Below are positions 6,920 to 12,679 of a stretch of DNA of 28,428 bases, in pieces (the stretch's first letter is position 1; the number at the start of each line of letters is the position of its first letter). The notes below the pieces were generated by a model. That model ran no database searches. It worked only from the letters and a program-made list of their open reading frames with translations, and was not told the origin of the DNA. Location: IMG/VR virus record IMGVR_UViG_2534682139_000012; one strand, given 5' to 3'. Made by a program: the position numbers and the translations under genes. Source of the stretch: a virus (taxonomy: Duplodnaviria > Heunggongvirae > Uroviricota > Caudoviricetes).

Positions 6920-9756
6920 GTGAGTTTGCATGGAGCTGGAATGAACCACGGCCAGCCATTGATCCGGCCAGATTTACGGAGCACAGGCAGGAAACTGAAA
7001 CCGACCTGCAACGCGCCATCCGTTACTACCTTGAGGCGGACAAAAAGGCCCGGGAAGAACAGGAAGCGAAGGAGGAAGCCTTTTTCGCACAATCCGCCAT
7101 GGGTAAAAAACTCATGGCATCCCTTGAGGAAGCCGGACAGCGTGAAAAGCTGGCACAGAGCATCATCAGTAAGCGCCGGGCAACAGAACAAGACCCGGTG
7201 GCCCGTGCCTTTGCCACACTGAAGGCGCTTCCCGTTTATCTGCGAGAACCTCTGAGCCGCCACCTCTCTTTCCTGCGCAAGAAGCAGGAAGCCGATCGTC
7301 AGAAAGGCAAAAAGAGCTGGCAGGCGGAACGCTATGCACGCGGAACCCTGCGCAAAATATTCGAACGTCTGGACCGCACCGACAGCCGCTGGCTGACACC
7401 GGGTTATCGCTCCCTTGCCGGACGCGAACGCCTGGACGATTTGCTTTACCTGCCGCAGCTCAACAAACACCAGATACAGACGCTGGCCACCATGACGGCG
7501 GCGATGTTCAGCAGCACCTTCGAAAAACTCTGCGATGGCTTTGGCGCGACTGATGGCGAACTGACCATGGATGTAACGCTGAAGGCGTATCAGATGCTGG
7601 CCCGCATGGCGTTACACCTGCACGCCATGCCTCCACATTATGACGCACTGACAACAGACAAAGACCGGAGGAACGAACCGGACACGGAGCTGCTGCCGGG
7701 CGCAATCCTTCGCCTGACCTGTGCGGAATGGTGGAAACGCAAACTGTGGCTGTTACGTTGCGAGTGGAGAGAAGAACAACTCCGCGCCGCCTGTCTGGTT
7801 TCCAGAAAAACATCACCCTATCTGAGCCAGGACGCGTTAAGCGAGTTTCGCGCACAGCGCGAGAAAACACGCGATTTCCTGAAAAGTTTTATGCTGGAAA
7901 ACGAAGACGGGTTCACGATTGATCTCGAAACAGTGTATTACGCGGGAGTAAGTAACCCGGTTCACCGTAAGGCAGAAATGATGGCCACCATGAAGGGGCT
8001 GGAACTTCTGGCCGAAGCCCGTGGCGACAAAGCGGTGTTTCTGACTGTCACCTGCCCGTCAAAATACCACGCCACAACAGAGAACGGTCATCCGAATCCC
8101 AAATGGAACGGAGCCACCATGCGCGACTCCAGCGATTACCTGGTTAACACGTTTTTTGCGGCGGTCCGCAAGAAACTGAACCGCGACGGCCTGCGCTGGT
8201 ATGGCATCCGCACGGTGGAGCCTCACCATGACGGCACCGTGCACTGGCATATGATGGTCTTTGCTCATCCGGAAGAAATCGACACCATTGTGTCCCACAC
8301 CCGCGATATTGCCATTCAGGAAGATCGTCACGAGCTGGGTGATGATATTACCCCACGCTTTAAGGCGGAGTACGTCGACGGCTCAAAAGGTACGCCAACC
8401 AGCTACATCGCCACCTACATCGGAAAGAACCTAGACAGCCGCGCCGTGGATGGCATCGACCCGAAAACGGGCAAGCCACGCGTTGACCACGAAACCGGAA
8501 AATCAATGGCCGAGAGCGTGGAACGCGCCATCGGCTGGGCGCGCCTTCACCGTGTCCGCCAGTTCCAGTTCTTTGGTATCCCCTCCCGTCAGGTGTGGCG
8601 TGAACTCCGCCGCCTTGCCAGCCAGATGGCACGCAACCCGGAAGGCCCGCAACGGCTGAAGGATGACGCAATGGATGCGGTACTCGCTGCCGCTGATGCC
8701 GGATGTTTTGCCACCTACATAGAGAAACAGGGCGGCGTACTTGTTCCACGCAAAGACTACCTGATTCGCACCGCCTACGACCTCGCAGATGAGCTGAACG
8801 ATTACGGCGAACAGAGTGTACAGATTTACGGGATCTGGTCGCCGCTCATCGGGGAATCCTCCCGTGTGTGCACGCATCCGGATAACTGGAAGCTGGTAAG
8901 ACGTAAACCGGAAGCGGAAGACAGCGCCCGCGAAAATGGTTTTGACCTTCAGGGCGGCCCTGCCGCCCCTTGGACTCGTGGCAATAACTGTCCCCGTGTA
9001 CAGGAAACGGACAACAACGGGACAGAACAGCCGGAAGAACGGCCAGCACCGTGGCCGCAGCTTCCTGACGGCGTTGATGTGGATGAATGGGTGCGCTCAC
9101 TGAAACGGCACGAACGCCGGGCGCTGATGCGTTCGCTTCGTGACAAACAGGCAAAAAACAGCAGTGATGAAATGCAGAGCTGGACACAGAGCCGCAAACA
9201 GCAGCGGCCTTTGCCTGATAACCACGAATTACTCGCTAGAGAATGGCGGGAGTCTGCTGAATCTCTCGGCCTGCATATCGGTGAACAACAAATGCAGCAC
9301 CTGTTACGGGGCGGCAGTCTGTACGTTGACGGCAGCATCATTGCACCGCAGGGATTTGAAATTGTACGCAAACCGGATACCCGCCCGGACAGCCGAATCA
9401 CGCAGCTCTGGCAGCGCCTGAGCCGTAATCACGGTGTAAGCAGCACGGAGATCCGCCATAACCCGGTCGCCAGCTATCTGGCACAGCTGGGGGCATCAGA
9501 CCCTGAAGCCGCCACACGCCTGGCATCCACACTTCAGCAGGACCAGAACACCATGAAAACACCCGTTACCGTGCTTTCTGACATGCTGCGCGCCATCCGC
9601 GACGCAGAGCACGCACAGAGAATCAGTGAAACCACTGAACGTGCCCGCCGCAAAGCAGACCTGCTGCGGGGTGGCCTGACCAGTGGAAACAAAAAACAGA
9701 CAGAAACGGGATTCACAAATCCCGTAAATGAGCAAAAAACGCGCCGCGATATATGA
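6916..9756 (+). CDS. A: P2 gpA-like rolling-circle replication initiator (HUH endonuclease), with a long C-terminal extension
   Basis: HUH-like motif VHWHMMVFAHPEE and paired tyrosines in SYIATYIGKN; the 946 aa compare with about 760 aa recalled for P2 A; start chosen at the ATG coupled to the upstream stop. Confidence 0.85.
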   Translation: MSEFAWSWNEPRPAIDPARFTEHRQETETDLQRAIRYYLEADKKAREEQEAKEEAFFAQSAMGKKLMASLEEAGQREKLAQSIISKRRATEQDPVARAFATLKALPVYLREPLSRHLSFLRKKQEADRQKGKKSWQAERYARGTLRKIFERLDRTDSRWLTPGYRSLAGRERLDDLLYLPQLNKHQIQTLATMTAAMFSSTFEKLCDGFGATDGELTMDVTLKAYQMLARMALHLHAMPPHYDALTTDKDRRNEPDTELLPGAILRLTCAEWWKRKLWLLRCEWREEQLRAACLVSRKTSPYLSQDALSEFRAQREKTRDFLKSFMLENEDGFTIDLETVYYAGVSNPVHRKAEMMATMKGLELLAEARGDKAVFLTVTCPSKYHATTENGHPNPKWNGATMRDSSDYLVNTFFAAVRKKLNRDGLRWYGIRTVEPHHDGTVHWHMMVFAHPEEIDTIVSHTRDIAIQEDRHELGDDITPRFKAEYVDGSKGTPTSYIATYIGKNLDSRAVDGIDPKTGKPRVDHETGKSMAESVERAIGWARLHRVRQFQFFGIPSRQVWRELRRLASQMARNPEGPQRLKDDAMDAVLAAADAGCFATYIEKQGGVLVPRKDYLIRTAYDLADELNDYGEQSVQIYGIWSPLIGESSRVCTHPDNWKLVRRKPEAEDSARENGFDLQGGPAAPWTRGNNCPRVQETDNNGTEQPEERPAPWPQLPDGVDVDEWVRSLKRHERRALMRSLRDKQAKNSSDEMQSWTQSRKQQRPLPDNHELLAREWRESAESLGLHIGEQQMQHLLRGGSLYVDGSIIAPQGFEIVRKPDTRPDSRITQLWQRLSRNHGVSSTEIRHNPVASYLAQLGASDPEAATRLASTLQQDQNTMKTPVTVLSDMLRAIRDAEHAQRISETTERARRKADLLRGGLTSGNKKQTETGFTNPVNEQKTRRDI

Positions 9757-9801
9757 AGCGCACACAAAACAGGCAAAAACGGGATTTCAGAATCCCGTAA
9801 A
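9704..9801. repeat. Two copies of a 20-bp palindrome ACGGGATT-N4-AATCCCGT, 73 bp apart, upstream of parM; candidate ParR-binding centromere/operator
   Basis: Copy 1 at 9706-9725 (inside the 3' end of the A gene) and copy 2 at 9779-9798 (35 bp upstream of the parM ATG); flanks are also conserved (AAACGGGATT ... CCCGTAAA). Confidence 0.5.
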
Positions 9802-9832
9802 CGATTAATTAATCAACATAAGGAAAAGCGAC

Positions 9833-10792
9833 ATGAAAATTTGTATCGACGACGGCTCCACCAACATCAAGCTGGCATGGACTGAGAACAGCGAACGCCG
9901 CAACGCCATCAGCCCGAACAGCTTCAAGTCGGAATGGTCTGCGCCGTTCGGTGGCTCGCAGCCTGCGAACTACATGCTTGATGGCGTGCGCTATGGTTTT
10001 GATCCGGTCAGCGATCGCTTTGTCCAGACGACCGACACGCAATACCAGTACAGCGATGTGAATGTAATCGCCATTCACCACGCGCTGGTCAAATCAGGCA
10101 TCACACCACAGGAGGTGGATGTGGTTGTCACCCTGCCACTGAGCGAGTATTTCGACACAAACGCACAGCCGGACATGGCCAACATCAACCGCAAAAAAGC
10201 GAACGTTATGCGCCCGGTGGAGTACCAGAACGGCGAAGCATTCACTATCCGTAACGTGCGGGTTATGCCTGAATCCATTCCGGCTGGCTTTAAGGCACTG
10301 GCTGACATGAGTCCGTTTGAATCCCTGCTGATTGTGGATTTAGGCGGAACCACGCTGGATGTGGCAAAGGTCCAGGGACAACTGGCAGGTATCAGCCAGG
10401 TGTTTTGCGATCCACACGTAGGCGTTTCCCTGATGGCCGATGCCGTACTGTCGGTGATGGCCACTAACGGTATGCGTACCAGTCACCACATCGCCAATAC
10501 CATTATCGAACATCGCCATGATGAAGCCTGGTTGCGCCAACACATCCACAATGACGCGCATTACGCCAGCCTGATGGCGGTTATTCGTGAAAAGGAAGAA
10601 ACACTGAAACAACGCGTGATCCGCGCGCTGGCGGGTTTTTCGGGTTACGGACGGGTGATGGTTGTCGGTGGCGGGGCGGAGATTGTGGCACCCGCTATCC
10701 GCGAAGCCTGCGGAGTTAATGCGACTTTCATCGCGGACGGGGTGCCACAGTTTGCTCTGGTTAATGGGCTGTACGCAATGGACAAGGAGTAA
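9833..10792 (+). CDS. parM: ParM/StbA-family actin-like segregation ATPase
   Basis: N-terminus MKICIDDGSTNIKLAW ... SPNSFKSEW ... YSDVNVIAIHHAL closely resembles plasmid R1 ParM (MLVFIDDGSTNIKLQW ... SPNSFKREW ... YSDVNVVAVHHAL). Confidence 0.85.
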   Translation: MKICIDDGSTNIKLAWTENSERRNAISPNSFKSEWSAPFGGSQPANYMLDGVRYGFDPVSDRFVQTTDTQYQYSDVNVIAIHHALVKSGITPQEVDVVVTLPLSEYFDTNAQPDMANINRKKANVMRPVEYQNGEAFTIRNVRVMPESIPAGFKALADMSPFESLLIVDLGGTTLDVAKVQGQLAGISQVFCDPHVGVSLMADAVLSVMATNGMRTSHHIANTIIEHRHDEAWLRQHIHNDAHYASLMAVIREKEETLKQRVIRALAGFSGYGRVMVVGGGAEIVAPAIREACGVNATFIADGVPQFALVNGLYAMDKE

Positions 10793-10796
10793 ACCA

Positions 10797-11108
10797 ATGA
10801 CGACACCAACCAGACGGATAAGTTTCTATCTGAAGCCCGCCGCCGTCAAGAACGAAGGCGAAGCATGCGCCTGGCTGGACAGCCTTACACCAGAAGCCCG
10901 CAAAAGCGGCCAACGTGTGGCTTTTCTGGCCGGGCTGGCACTTCTGAAAATGAATCCGGCAGAGGCTTACCGACTGGCTGCATGGGCTGATGATGAAGCG
11001 TTATCAGTGACACAAACCAGGACAGAACGCCCCGCATCACAGCCAGTATCAACCGCACAGATAACCAGTCAGATGGCCGGAAATATCCGGGCGTTATTTC
11101 CTGAATAA
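10797..11108 (+). CDS. parR: ParR-like partition adaptor (DNA-binding partner of ParM)
   Basis: MTTPTRRISFYLKPAAV ... LDSLTPEARKSGQRVAFLAGLAL resembles R1 ParR (RRTIAFKLNPD ... LDSIPQGERSRLNRAALTAGLAL); RBS AAGGAG; directly follows parM. Confidence 0.6.
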   Translation: MTTPTRRISFYLKPAAVKNEGEACAWLDSLTPEARKSGQRVAFLAGLALLKMNPAEAYRLAAWADDEALSVTQTRTERPASQPVSTAQITSQMAGNIRALFPE

Positions 11109-11171
11109 CACAACATCAGGGCGAGTTCGCCCTGCTCTCCACCTCAGAACATAAACAAGGAGAACGACTTA

Positions 11172-11507
11172 ATGAGCGAAATCAACTATCAGGCATTACG
11201 TGAACGTTATTCACCTGTGCCAGTACCGAAATGCCCTATTTGCGGCGAGGAAATGTCAATTCAGCGAATATCTGGAGCACAGGTTGTTTATGCCTGCTCC
11301 GGTTATGGTGATGATGGAGATTTCAAAATTGGCCGAACTCTTGCCGACGAACATTATGAAAAATCACACGTAACAGTGTTGGATGTCGGGATCCTGAAGT
11401 ATTGGCGCTACTTGATTGGCTGGAAACCAAAGACAACCGAATCGCTGAACTGGAAAAAATCGCCACTGACTATGCACTTAAATTCCAGAAAGCACAGGAC
11501 GCATTAA
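11172..11507 (+). CDS. Hypothetical protein with a CxxC pair (possible zinc-ribbon); may be frame-disrupted
   Basis: CPICGEEM ... YACSGYGDDG in the N-terminus; an overlapping frame (11360-11554) encodes a coiled-coil-like tail (LALLDWLETKDNRIAELEKIATDYALKFQKAQDALKYAALL) with no start codon of its own. Confidence 0.4.
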   Translation: MSEINYQALRERYSPVPVPKCPICGEEMSIQRISGAQVVYACSGYGDDGDFKIGRTLADEHYEKSHVTVLDVGILKYWRYLIGWKPKTTESLNWKKSPLTMHLNSRKHRTH

Positions 11508-11644
11508 AGTACGCCGCTTTGCTGCATAGCAGGACAGCGCAGCTAAAATACTAACTTAAAGCGGAAGATTAATACATGGTGAGTCGGGGTAATTTGTTTT
11601 TATCCCAACAAATAAACAAAAAAGTGGACTATCTCTGTAGTATC

Positions 11645-12175: not shown

Positions 12176-12654
12176 GTCTTGCGCCCATTAAAATTTCCCT
12201 GCTACGAACAAATTTACCATCCGTTTTTTGCGCAGAAAACAGCACGATGCACACTGCACGATAGTGCACAAATTTGCACAATTTTTTTGAACGACTTTTT
12301 GCCCTTCCGGCCCCCGTGGCGGCTGGATCCGTCAAGGATCCGTGCGTGCACAAAAAAACGCGTTTTTTCTGCGCGCAGGTGACGGGGGAACAGCCCGCGT
12401 TTCAGGGGGTAAATAGCATTCCCTGAACGATGTCGCAGAGATACAACAGAATGGCTGTATTTCTCACGCTGAGCGTGAAAAAGACGTGAGGGCTTTTGAT
12501 TTGATGGGGTGAAAGGTAAGGCCGTCAAAATCGCACTGAGACGGCGAGAACATGCAGTCAACGCGGTGGGATTGCGTAAGAGTCTGACTGTCGATGATGG
12601 CAATCAGCAGGAAAGCGTCGTGAAATTATCTGACTGATACAGGAGCTGGAGAGT

Positions 12655-12679
12655 CGGGGCATAAATTTTTTATGCCCCG
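12655..12679. other. Perfect 11-bp-stem palindrome CGGGGCATAAA-ttt-TTTATGCCCCG just downstream of the portal gene (candidate terminator or packaging-region site)
   Basis: Read directly; lies in the 530-bp intergenic region where cos is expected by P2 synteny. Confidence 0.4.

Follow-up and report, generated by a model that had tools for sequence, protein, structure and literature searches.

In plasmid R1, parC consists of two blocks of five direct 11-bp iterons placed around a 39-bp promoter spacer (159 bp in total), and one ParR dimer occupies each iteron in a U-shaped complex (PMC2241845). A chromosomal system of Clostridium botulinum, cParCMR, has a parC of palindromic repeats that was bound by its ParR, as judged by electrophoretic mobility shift assay; the text of that report places cparC upstream of cParMR and a figure legend places it after cParR (PMC12270681). 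In the Corynebacterium prophage CGP3, AlpA, AlpC and alpS make up a system in which the adaptor of an actin-like filament attaches to repeats within its own promoter region, and the system is needed for efficient replication and transport of the phage DNA (PMC4446434, PMC5539076). Rousset et al. 2022 (PMC9122126) state that ≈ 1/4 of the P2-like phages of Escherichia coli carry a 'putative plasmid partitioning system' in the hotspot between gpA and gpQ, and suggest plasmid-like maintenance as speculation. We analyzed a cassette of this kind in IMG/VR record IMGVR_UViG_2534682139_000012, a stretch of 28,428 bp that we refer to as the window and that is a P88-like prophage (Xuanwuvirus, Peduoviridae, P2-like). 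Two 20-bp palindromes lie directly upstream of its parM gene. Comparative sequence data and analogy with known systems indicate that these palindromes probably are the cis-acting ParR site, a parC-like operator/centromere belonging to a type II ParMR cassette that the prophage carries.

Both palindromes have the form ACGGGATT-N4-AATCCCGT. Palindrome 1 (ACGGGATTCACAAATCCCGT, that is, ACGGGATT-CACA-AATCCCGT) occupies positions 9706–9725 and is the first proposed site for a ParR dimer of dimers; palindrome 2 (ACGGGATTTCAGAATCCCGT, or ACGGGATT-TCAG-AATCCCGT) occupies positions 9779–9798. These are exactly the positions given in an earlier, sequence-only reading of this DNA, and the spacing of about seven turns noted there was also accurate: the starts lie 73 bp apart, which at 10.5 bp per turn makes ≈ 6.95 helical turns. 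The conserved core of palindrome 1, GGGATT-N4-AATCCC, lies at 9708–9723. No other perfect 8/4/8 palindrome is present in the window (shuffle mean, 0.385; two or more in 10 of 200 shuffles), and no further copy with up to three mismatches was found in its 28,428 bp (chance expectation, 0.14). Loose half-site copies elsewhere in the window were not more frequent than expected by chance, and no half-site cluster was seen, for example near the immunity region. The flanks of the palindromes, described earlier as conserved, are indeed so. Each palindrome lies within a 43-nt repeat unit, the first (9689–9731) comprising an A-rich leader, palindrome 1 and its right flank, and the second (9762–9804) being non-coding. 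The two units are direct repeats with 81% identity and starts 73 bp apart, so that the two copies reflect a duplication rather than independent events. The 53-bp spacer between the palindromes (9726–9778, plus strand) contains the stop codon of gpA. Between palindrome 2 and the ribosome-binding site lies a conserved AT-rich box, GATTAATTAAT (9803–9813, plus strand), which was almost invariant among 47 distinct upstream sequences and the window; GATTAAT is retained in a Hafnia phage.

The two genes downstream of the palindromes were readily assigned. The parM gene (9833–10792, plus strand) encodes an actin-like ATPase of 319 amino acids with matches to Pfam StbA_N (7.9e-82) and to the ParM C-terminal domain (1.3e-68). 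It matched R1 ParM (PDB 1MWK) with E = 2e-92 and was 46% identical to an R1-type plasmid locus in tblastn. Directly downstream, parR (10797–11108, plus strand) encodes a small adaptor of 103 amino acids that matches Pfam PF10784 Plasmid_stab_B (StbB/ParR; 1.6e-24), a PHROG annotated as 'partition protein' and, at E = 0.0026, PDB 2JD3 (pB171 ParR), whose N-terminal domain has a solved ribbon-helix-helix structure. The N-terminal 61 amino acids are 33% identical to R1 ParR. Judged by these matches, both genes encode genuine ParM and ParR homologues, and the cassette has both the actin-like ATPase and the predicted small ribbon-helix-helix adaptor of a type II ParMRC system. An AlphaFold2 model of the ParR monomer (13-sequence alignment) had a mean predicted local distance difference test score of 56, a disordered N-terminus and no strand; since a monomer cannot form the ribbon of a ribbon-helix-helix fold, the model was not used.

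The proteins place the locus in the ParMRC family, but the architecture of its site departs from the iteron array that defines the family. The R1-type parC sequence that we retrieved has A-rich 11-bp direct iterons ending in ACCC, arranged in two blocks 94 bp apart. The phage locus shares with R1/NR1 parC (whose ParR is StbB) the order site–parM–parR, a position directly upstream of parM and two blocks around a spacer. In both, the distance between the blocks is near a whole number of helical turns (94 bp in R1, 73 bp in the phage), and both are A-rich with a CCC-containing core (AACCC and AATCCC, respectively). In contrast, R1 parC has ten direct iterons, whereas the phage has only two 20-bp inverted-repeat sites, that is, four half-sites rather than an array of many direct iterons; the unlikeness to the short direct repeats of R1 had been pointed out in the sequence-only reading and is borne out here. 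The outward-facing residues of the ParR strand also differ between the two, and the host element is an integrating P2-like prophage and not a low-copy plasmid. In the IncL/M plasmid pEL60, repeats of the GTATTTTTCT type form two blocks that are also 73 bp apart, around TTTACA...TAATAAT, which looks promoter-like by inspection. The two-block layout and the block spacing agree with those of the phage, but the pEL60 repeats are direct and the phage half-sites inverted. The ParR proteins of pSK41 and pB171 (2JD3) are ribbon-helix-helix proteins that, like the proposed arrangement here, assemble as dimers of dimers, and each dimer of dimers of pSK41 ParR binds ≈ 20 bp of DNA. Their direct-repeat arrays build a continuous superhelical scaffold, whereas in the phage two palindromic units stand isolated at a distance of 73 bp. 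The C. botulinum system, likewise chromosome-encoded and with a palindromic parC, is a precedent for palindromes bound by ParR, although it has three palindromic repeats, comes from the Firmicutes rather than from a P2-like phage and has no detectable sequence relationship to the present ParR subfamily. For the function of ParMR-like systems in integrating prophages, CGP3 AlpACS provides a precedent; its adaptor is not homologous to ParR, however, and binds short TTAAnnG repeats, of which the tested fragment contained seven. By analogy, the AlpACS precedent suggests that parMR may position replicating phage DNA.

The palindromes accompany parMR with few exceptions. A scan of IMG/VR for exact palindromes returned at least 120 loci. 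Among the matches listed, 115 of 120 were P88-like gpA/parM loci and the other five were unrelated single hairpins without gpA or ParM. With two copies in the window and one context for 115 of these 120 matches, the element does not have the distribution of a dispersed REP/BIME-like repeat or of a CRISPR repeat. We also selected 59 evaluable metagenome loci by their ParR, regardless of palindromes. In 58 of them both sites were present, at −125 and −52 relative to the start codon of parM, each with at most one mismatch to the 12-nt core, and palindrome 2 was found in every ParR- or ParM-selected locus with usable upstream sequence. A repeated cis site directly upstream of parM hence travels with the genes. 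The sequence-only reading had proposed such a count of copies in related elements and had named lack of conservation in homologous loci as grounds against its interpretation; the palindromes are conserved there. The one exception (metagenome contig ERZ894188 NODE-8, 1440–1540; locus L338) is a clean one-unit deletion that leaves a hybrid unit. From its sequence, recombination between the 43-nt repeats has removed palindrome 1 and the spacer. The gpA of this allele would end in KKQAKTGFQNPVND before the stop codon.

Palindrome 1 lies inside the 3′ end of gpA (6889–9756, plus strand; match to Phage_GPA; stop codon TGA at 9754–9756), and the palindromes might accordingly serve a protein other than ParR: the gpA nuclease (with the palindromes as an origin or as an auxiliary site), a repressor of the phage or a factor of the host. 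HUH-type Rep proteins often recognize inverted repeats, and the P2 ori is located inside gene A. Half-sites spaced by one turn in a palindrome of 20 bp would equally be compatible with a helix-turn-helix dimer. The comparative data make this explanation very unlikely. In E. coli ECN24, gpA is 97% identical up to residue 927 and then has a different end; homology to the window stops at ≈ 9690–9700, neither palindrome is present and the cargo is an AAA-ATPase/S8-peptidase pair. Conversely, in E. coli SWHEFF_58 Rep is only 31% identical and an extra open reading frame (ORF) intervenes, yet homology sets in at exactly 9691 and both palindromes are present, here intergenic. Both palindromes are also kept in four loci in which a P88-type Rep is unrelated or absent (L047, L067, L305 and L345). 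In the unrelated-Rep loci that were aligned (SWHEFF_58, L047 and L067) homology starts at ≈ 9691, and loci whose Rep is 31% identical or yields only a short 40% match have identical palindromes. In 5426 complete E. coli genomes, the 142-nt leader (query 9691–9832) occurred at 1433 places in 1295 genomes and parM at 1443 places in 1303 genomes, as against 1777 places in 1578 genomes for the 3′ end of gpA; the leader tracks parM and not gpA. Nor was any further copy or half-site cluster found elsewhere in the window. A P2-like origin or gpA recognition site was rejected on this comparative evidence, since the palindromes are not co-inherited with Rep (absent from ECN24, present in SWHEFF_58 and L047).

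The same comparison locates the edge of the module. The last 21 codons of gpA and its stop codon (9691–9756, plus strand; residues 935–955, KKQTETGFTNPVNEQKTRRDI) begin with codon 935 at 9691, and these residues are 100% identical in SWHEFF_58 (tblastn). Because module homology begins at that very codon, variation in the last 21 gpA codons goes with the cargo rather than with the remainder of the gene. Both palindromes, as the alignments have it, are part of the parMR module and not of gpA. The earlier statement that one copy is embedded in gpA coding sequence is literally true, but the embedding is incidental. The hotspot cargo of ECN24 (L128, 4181–7457), an AAA-family ATPase and an S8-family peptidase, is in itself a candidate defence-type cargo.

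We also scanned contigs for twin cores (GGGATT-N4-AATCCC, gap of 47–67, same core). This gave 89 loci, almost all of them unrelated multi-copy arrays; only three were relevant (one in Salmonella, one on a 'Vagococcus' contig that is probably contaminated, and L211, seen in tblastn output only), and the scan is therefore little informative on taxonomic spread. The arrays, with a spacing of ≈ 70–100 bp (L130–L218), came from Desulfobacterales, Poribacteria, Rufibacter, Runella and an Acidimicrobiales metagenome-assembled genome (MAG), with up to 106 matches in an 8-kb stretch (both strands counted). They are possibly CRISPR or other tandem arrays unrelated to the parMR site.

Which part of the palindromes is constrained was seen most clearly in the Hafnia phage. 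Its sites, GCGGGATTCATGAATCCCAA and ACGGGATTTGAAAATCCCAT, are again spaced by 73 bp. All 24 core positions are identical to those of the window, versus 73% identity in the remaining leader (P about 6e-4). Neither the outer AC/GT pairs nor the 4 nt at the centre are constrained, the 6 + 6 core GGGATT-N4-AATCCC is fixed, and the stems are reduced to 6 bp. Elsewhere, in ≈ 100 distinct sequences, variants were all single-base, one-sided changes; not one compensatory (double-sided) change was found at the 16 stem pairs. Pairs 4–5 (GG/CC) never varied among 99 distinct sequences. The frequent palindrome 1 variant (C.A) is wobble-compatible on the minus strand only, and the frequent palindrome 2 variants (G.T) on the plus strand only. 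The lack of compensation and the strand-inconsistent wobble favor a DNA site over an RNA hairpin, and the pattern of variation, as read from the alignments, is that of degenerate protein half-sites and not of a conserved RNA hairpin on either strand.

This bears on two explanations in terms of RNA. The palindromes could act as plus-strand hairpins in a gpA–parM read-through transcript, in processing, stability or translational coupling. Co-transcription is plausible, as there is no plus-strand terminator and no clear promoter between gpA and parM; the 146-nt plus-strand region folds with z = −4.8, and the common palindrome 2 variants are G.U-compatible on that strand. However, the z-score comes largely from pairing between the copies, which is automatic when a palindrome is duplicated. 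The commonest palindrome 1 variant (T to C at arm position 7; 26 of 99 distinct sequences) yields a C.A mismatch in the plus-strand RNA, double-sided changes are absent at every pair, the outer pairs are broken without compensation in Hafnia while the 6-bp cores are kept, and an Rfam search gave no match. We regard such hairpins as quite improbable.

On the other strand, the palindromes could be intrinsic terminators or insulators, each an 8-bp hairpin followed by a T-rich run, that stop antisense transcription into gpA from the right. The terminator scan did list both on the minus strand (ACGGGATTCTGAAATCCCGT then TTTTGCCTGT; ACGGGATTTGTGAATCCCGT then TTCTGTCTGT), where a G+C-rich stem precedes a U-run, and the hairpins fold at ≈ −10 kcal/mol with z-scores of −2.4 to −2.9. 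But no minus-strand unit ends here: parM, parR and the Ead-like ORF that follows are all on the plus strand, and other hairpins (11117–11134 and 12656–12678) stand between the nearest minus-strand genes and the palindromes. The commonest palindrome 2 variants would place A.C mismatches in the minus-strand RNA, and a terminator stem does not appear to be maintained, with no double-sided change at the 16 pairs and Hafnia stems down to 6 bp. This role is most improbable. It is hardly credible that the palindromes lack a function and remain from a 43-nt duplication that arose at a recombination junction of the cargo hotspot and is linked to parMR. The copies do form a tandem-like duplication, vary within E. 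coli nearly as much as synonymous sites and have a one-unit deletion variant in L338. Yet Hafnia keeps both cores and the exact spacing in a leader otherwise 73% identical, two copies are retained in 58 of 59 ParR-selected loci although direct repeats invite deletion, and a junction scar would not be expected to show dyad symmetry within each unit.

If ParR binds the palindromes, the part of the protein that contacts DNA should be considered. At least 54 distinct ParR sequences, down to 49% identity, were present among the IMG/VR matches listed, whereas ParM was 95–100% identical. The N-terminal RRISFYLKP was invariant across the variants, and a C-terminal NI-x-x-(L/F)FP was conserved. In the Hafnia and L020 lineages, codon analysis showed that RRISFYLKP is retained through synonymous changes. 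In ribbon-helix-helix proteins, alternate residues of the strand face the DNA. When the strand was aligned to R1 ParR, I, F, L and P as well as R6 were identical, and the differing alternates were T/R, R/T, S/A, Y/K and K/N. As alternate positions differ, the pattern fits a changed DNA specificity, and from the alignment the DNA specificity of this ParR would be different from that of R1 ParR. Searches by tblastn for ParR proteins related to this subfamily but paired with another site found only P88-like elements, in 14 phage and seven 'plasmid' records; the latter were mostly oversized (0.2–1.4 Mb), apparently carrying prophage, plus one whole-phage circle. A word-indexed protein search with ParR gave matches that were all within the family. 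The comparison of co-variation between protein and site extends to Hafnia only.

The parR gene is mosaic, as seen from the window and loci L346, L069, L009, L020 and L125. The ParR classes of E. coli are identical in DNA over the first 18 codons and then diverge abruptly, which, from the sequences, is a recombination breakpoint inside parR. In the E. coli 'class B' alleles protein identity to the window drops to ≈ 52% after codon 18, and the parM beside it is still 97–99% identical; this pattern implies a recurrent recombination breakpoint directly after the DNA-binding strand. The C-terminal ParR peptide, the presumed contact with ParM, reads AGNIRALFPE in one class and KKNIQAFFPK in the other, though ParM is unchanged. 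Between Hafnia (MAG contigs L125/L126) and the window, ParM is 94%, gpA 57% and ParR 74% identical. The excess identity of ParM reflects either an unusually strong constraint on this protein or a recent exchange of the left part of the module between distant P2-like phages.

As to mechanism, we propose the following. The cassette is cargo in the gpA–gpQ hotspot of P88-like P2-family phages. Each 20-bp palindrome would be occupied by a ParR dimer of dimers, with one ribbon-helix-helix dimer on each GGGATT/AATCCC half-site; the half-site centres are 10–12 bp apart, and the dimers would hence sit on the same face of the DNA. The two ParR complexes, 73 bp (≈ seven turns) apart, would bracket or overlap the parM promoter, so that occupancy of the sites would repress parMR (autoregulation), and the ParR–DNA complex could then be the attachment point of ParM filaments on phage DNA. 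We infer ParR binding, its stoichiometry, repression and capture of ParM from the association with parMR and from analogy with the family. The computational tests capable of refuting it (conservation, fixed positions, linkage to parMR, and the Hafnia cores and spacing) all favor the parC-like ParR site that the sequence-only reading had expected.

Several observations weigh against this proposal. The promoter scan found no sigma-70 promoter at threshold, and a relaxed scan gave just two weak candidates, matching 7–8 of 12 consensus positions. One, TTCAGA (9786–9791)-16-ATTAAT (9808–9813), has its −35 element at the centre of palindrome 2 and a counterpart in Hafnia of TTGAAA-15-AATAAA; the other, TGAGCA (9729–9734)-15-TATATG (9750–9755), abuts palindrome 1 and corresponds to TGAACA-16-TATAAG in Hafnia. 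Either candidate would be blocked by an occupied palindrome. As the terminator scan found no plus-strand terminator between gpA and parM, and in view of the lack of a clear promoter, parMR could be read through from gpA and the early operon. The leader is chromosomal at 1431 of its 1433 places, where the need for a partition site is not obvious. Within E. coli, 8 and 9 of the 20 palindrome columns vary among 48 distinct leaders (the window and 47 from the loci), as against 132 of 319 third-codon positions of parM. No excess of conservation over synonymous sites was found; the divergence is too low to reveal selection. Both 12-nt cores were exact in only 35 of 78 ParM-selected loci. The breakpoint after codon 18 means that the N-terminal invariance among the E. 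coli ParR classes is in part linkage and not selection. Four half-sites are few next to the ten iterons of R1, and a helical ParR scaffold is thought necessary to cap the ParM filament, which makes centromere activity uncertain. Finally, we found no paper that analyzes the P88-type parMR cassette or its cis site, including binding, repression or stabilization. Given no more than four half-sites, the case for an operator is stronger than that for a complete centromere. That the twin palindromes form a minimal two-site centromere, through which ParMR would act on the DNA of an integrating P2-like phage itself, seems to us an unlikely though consequential extension.

The surroundings of the cassette are those of a P88-like prophage. 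Positions 9500–11200 are 94.6–97.4% identical to phages P88, P884B11, phiSM and others, and E. coli 2011C-4251 is 100% identical to 9200–10300, 8900–9680 and the parM stretches queried. The locus is the gpA–gpQ cargo hotspot of P2-family phages, with parMR as the cargo; a PADLOC search gave no relevant match. To the right of parR follow the Ead/Ea22-like ORF, a minus-strand ORF of 176 amino acids, cos, and the portal and terminase genes (minus strand). The Ead/Ea22-like ORF (111 amino acids; region 11172–11554) covers only the first 63 of 139 profile positions, and a 50-amino acid ORF in another frame (11402–11554) reads as its coiled-coil continuation; this gene may be frameshifted in the present copy. 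Other perfect palindromes are CAGGGCGAGTTCGCCCTG directly after parR (11117–11134), AAAAAACGCGTTTTTT in the cos region (12353–12368) and GGGGCATAAATTTTTTATGCCCC after the portal gene (12656–12678), the last of which looks like a bidirectional terminator. At the left end, a tyrosine integrase ORF (1–888, plus strand) has Int_N and only the first third of the catalytic domain, and overlaps an ORF for an insertion sequence (IS)-type transposase (770–1633, minus strand; rve, HTH_21). The integrase is apparently truncated by IS insertion, and this prophage copy may no longer excise. A complete P88-like genome of 34,461 bp from an E. coli isolate from a cat, with intact integrase, cox, gpA, parM, parR and late genes, has been deposited as a circular non-mobilisable 'plasmid' (NZ_CP148288.1, pZ1323PEC0009-2). 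This circle, which bears on a plasmid state supported by parMR, could be an excised or episomal form or a by-product of assembly.

The cassette was already known as hotspot cargo, and its cis site is not described in the passages of the literature that were searched. In those passages, the cargo of Rousset et al. (PMC9122126) is the same cassette at the same locus, treated as genes only, with no cis site, architecture or module boundary. parMR is one of the commonest cargos of the gpA–gpQ hotspot, and parM was found in 1303 of the 5426 complete E. coli genomes, O157:H7 among them. Definition of the cis site offers an experimental handle: four mutable half-sites, a 142-bp leader and a natural one-unit allele. 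That the last 21 gpA codons are supplied by the cargo module shows hotspot cargo reshaping the C-terminus of a core gene. The pairing of an R1-family ParR with an inverted-repeat, two-site layout bears on the number of adaptor dimers required to engage a ParM filament; if the palindromes do form a two-site centromere, four ParR half-sites would suffice to capture ParM filaments. After induction or infection, the system could then transport excised and rolling-circle-replicating genomes or keep them apart; alternatively, it could support a transient plasmid-like carrier state. With the cassette in ≈ 24% of complete E. coli genomes, an actin-like DNA-positioning machine would in that case be a common and overlooked part of coliphage biology.

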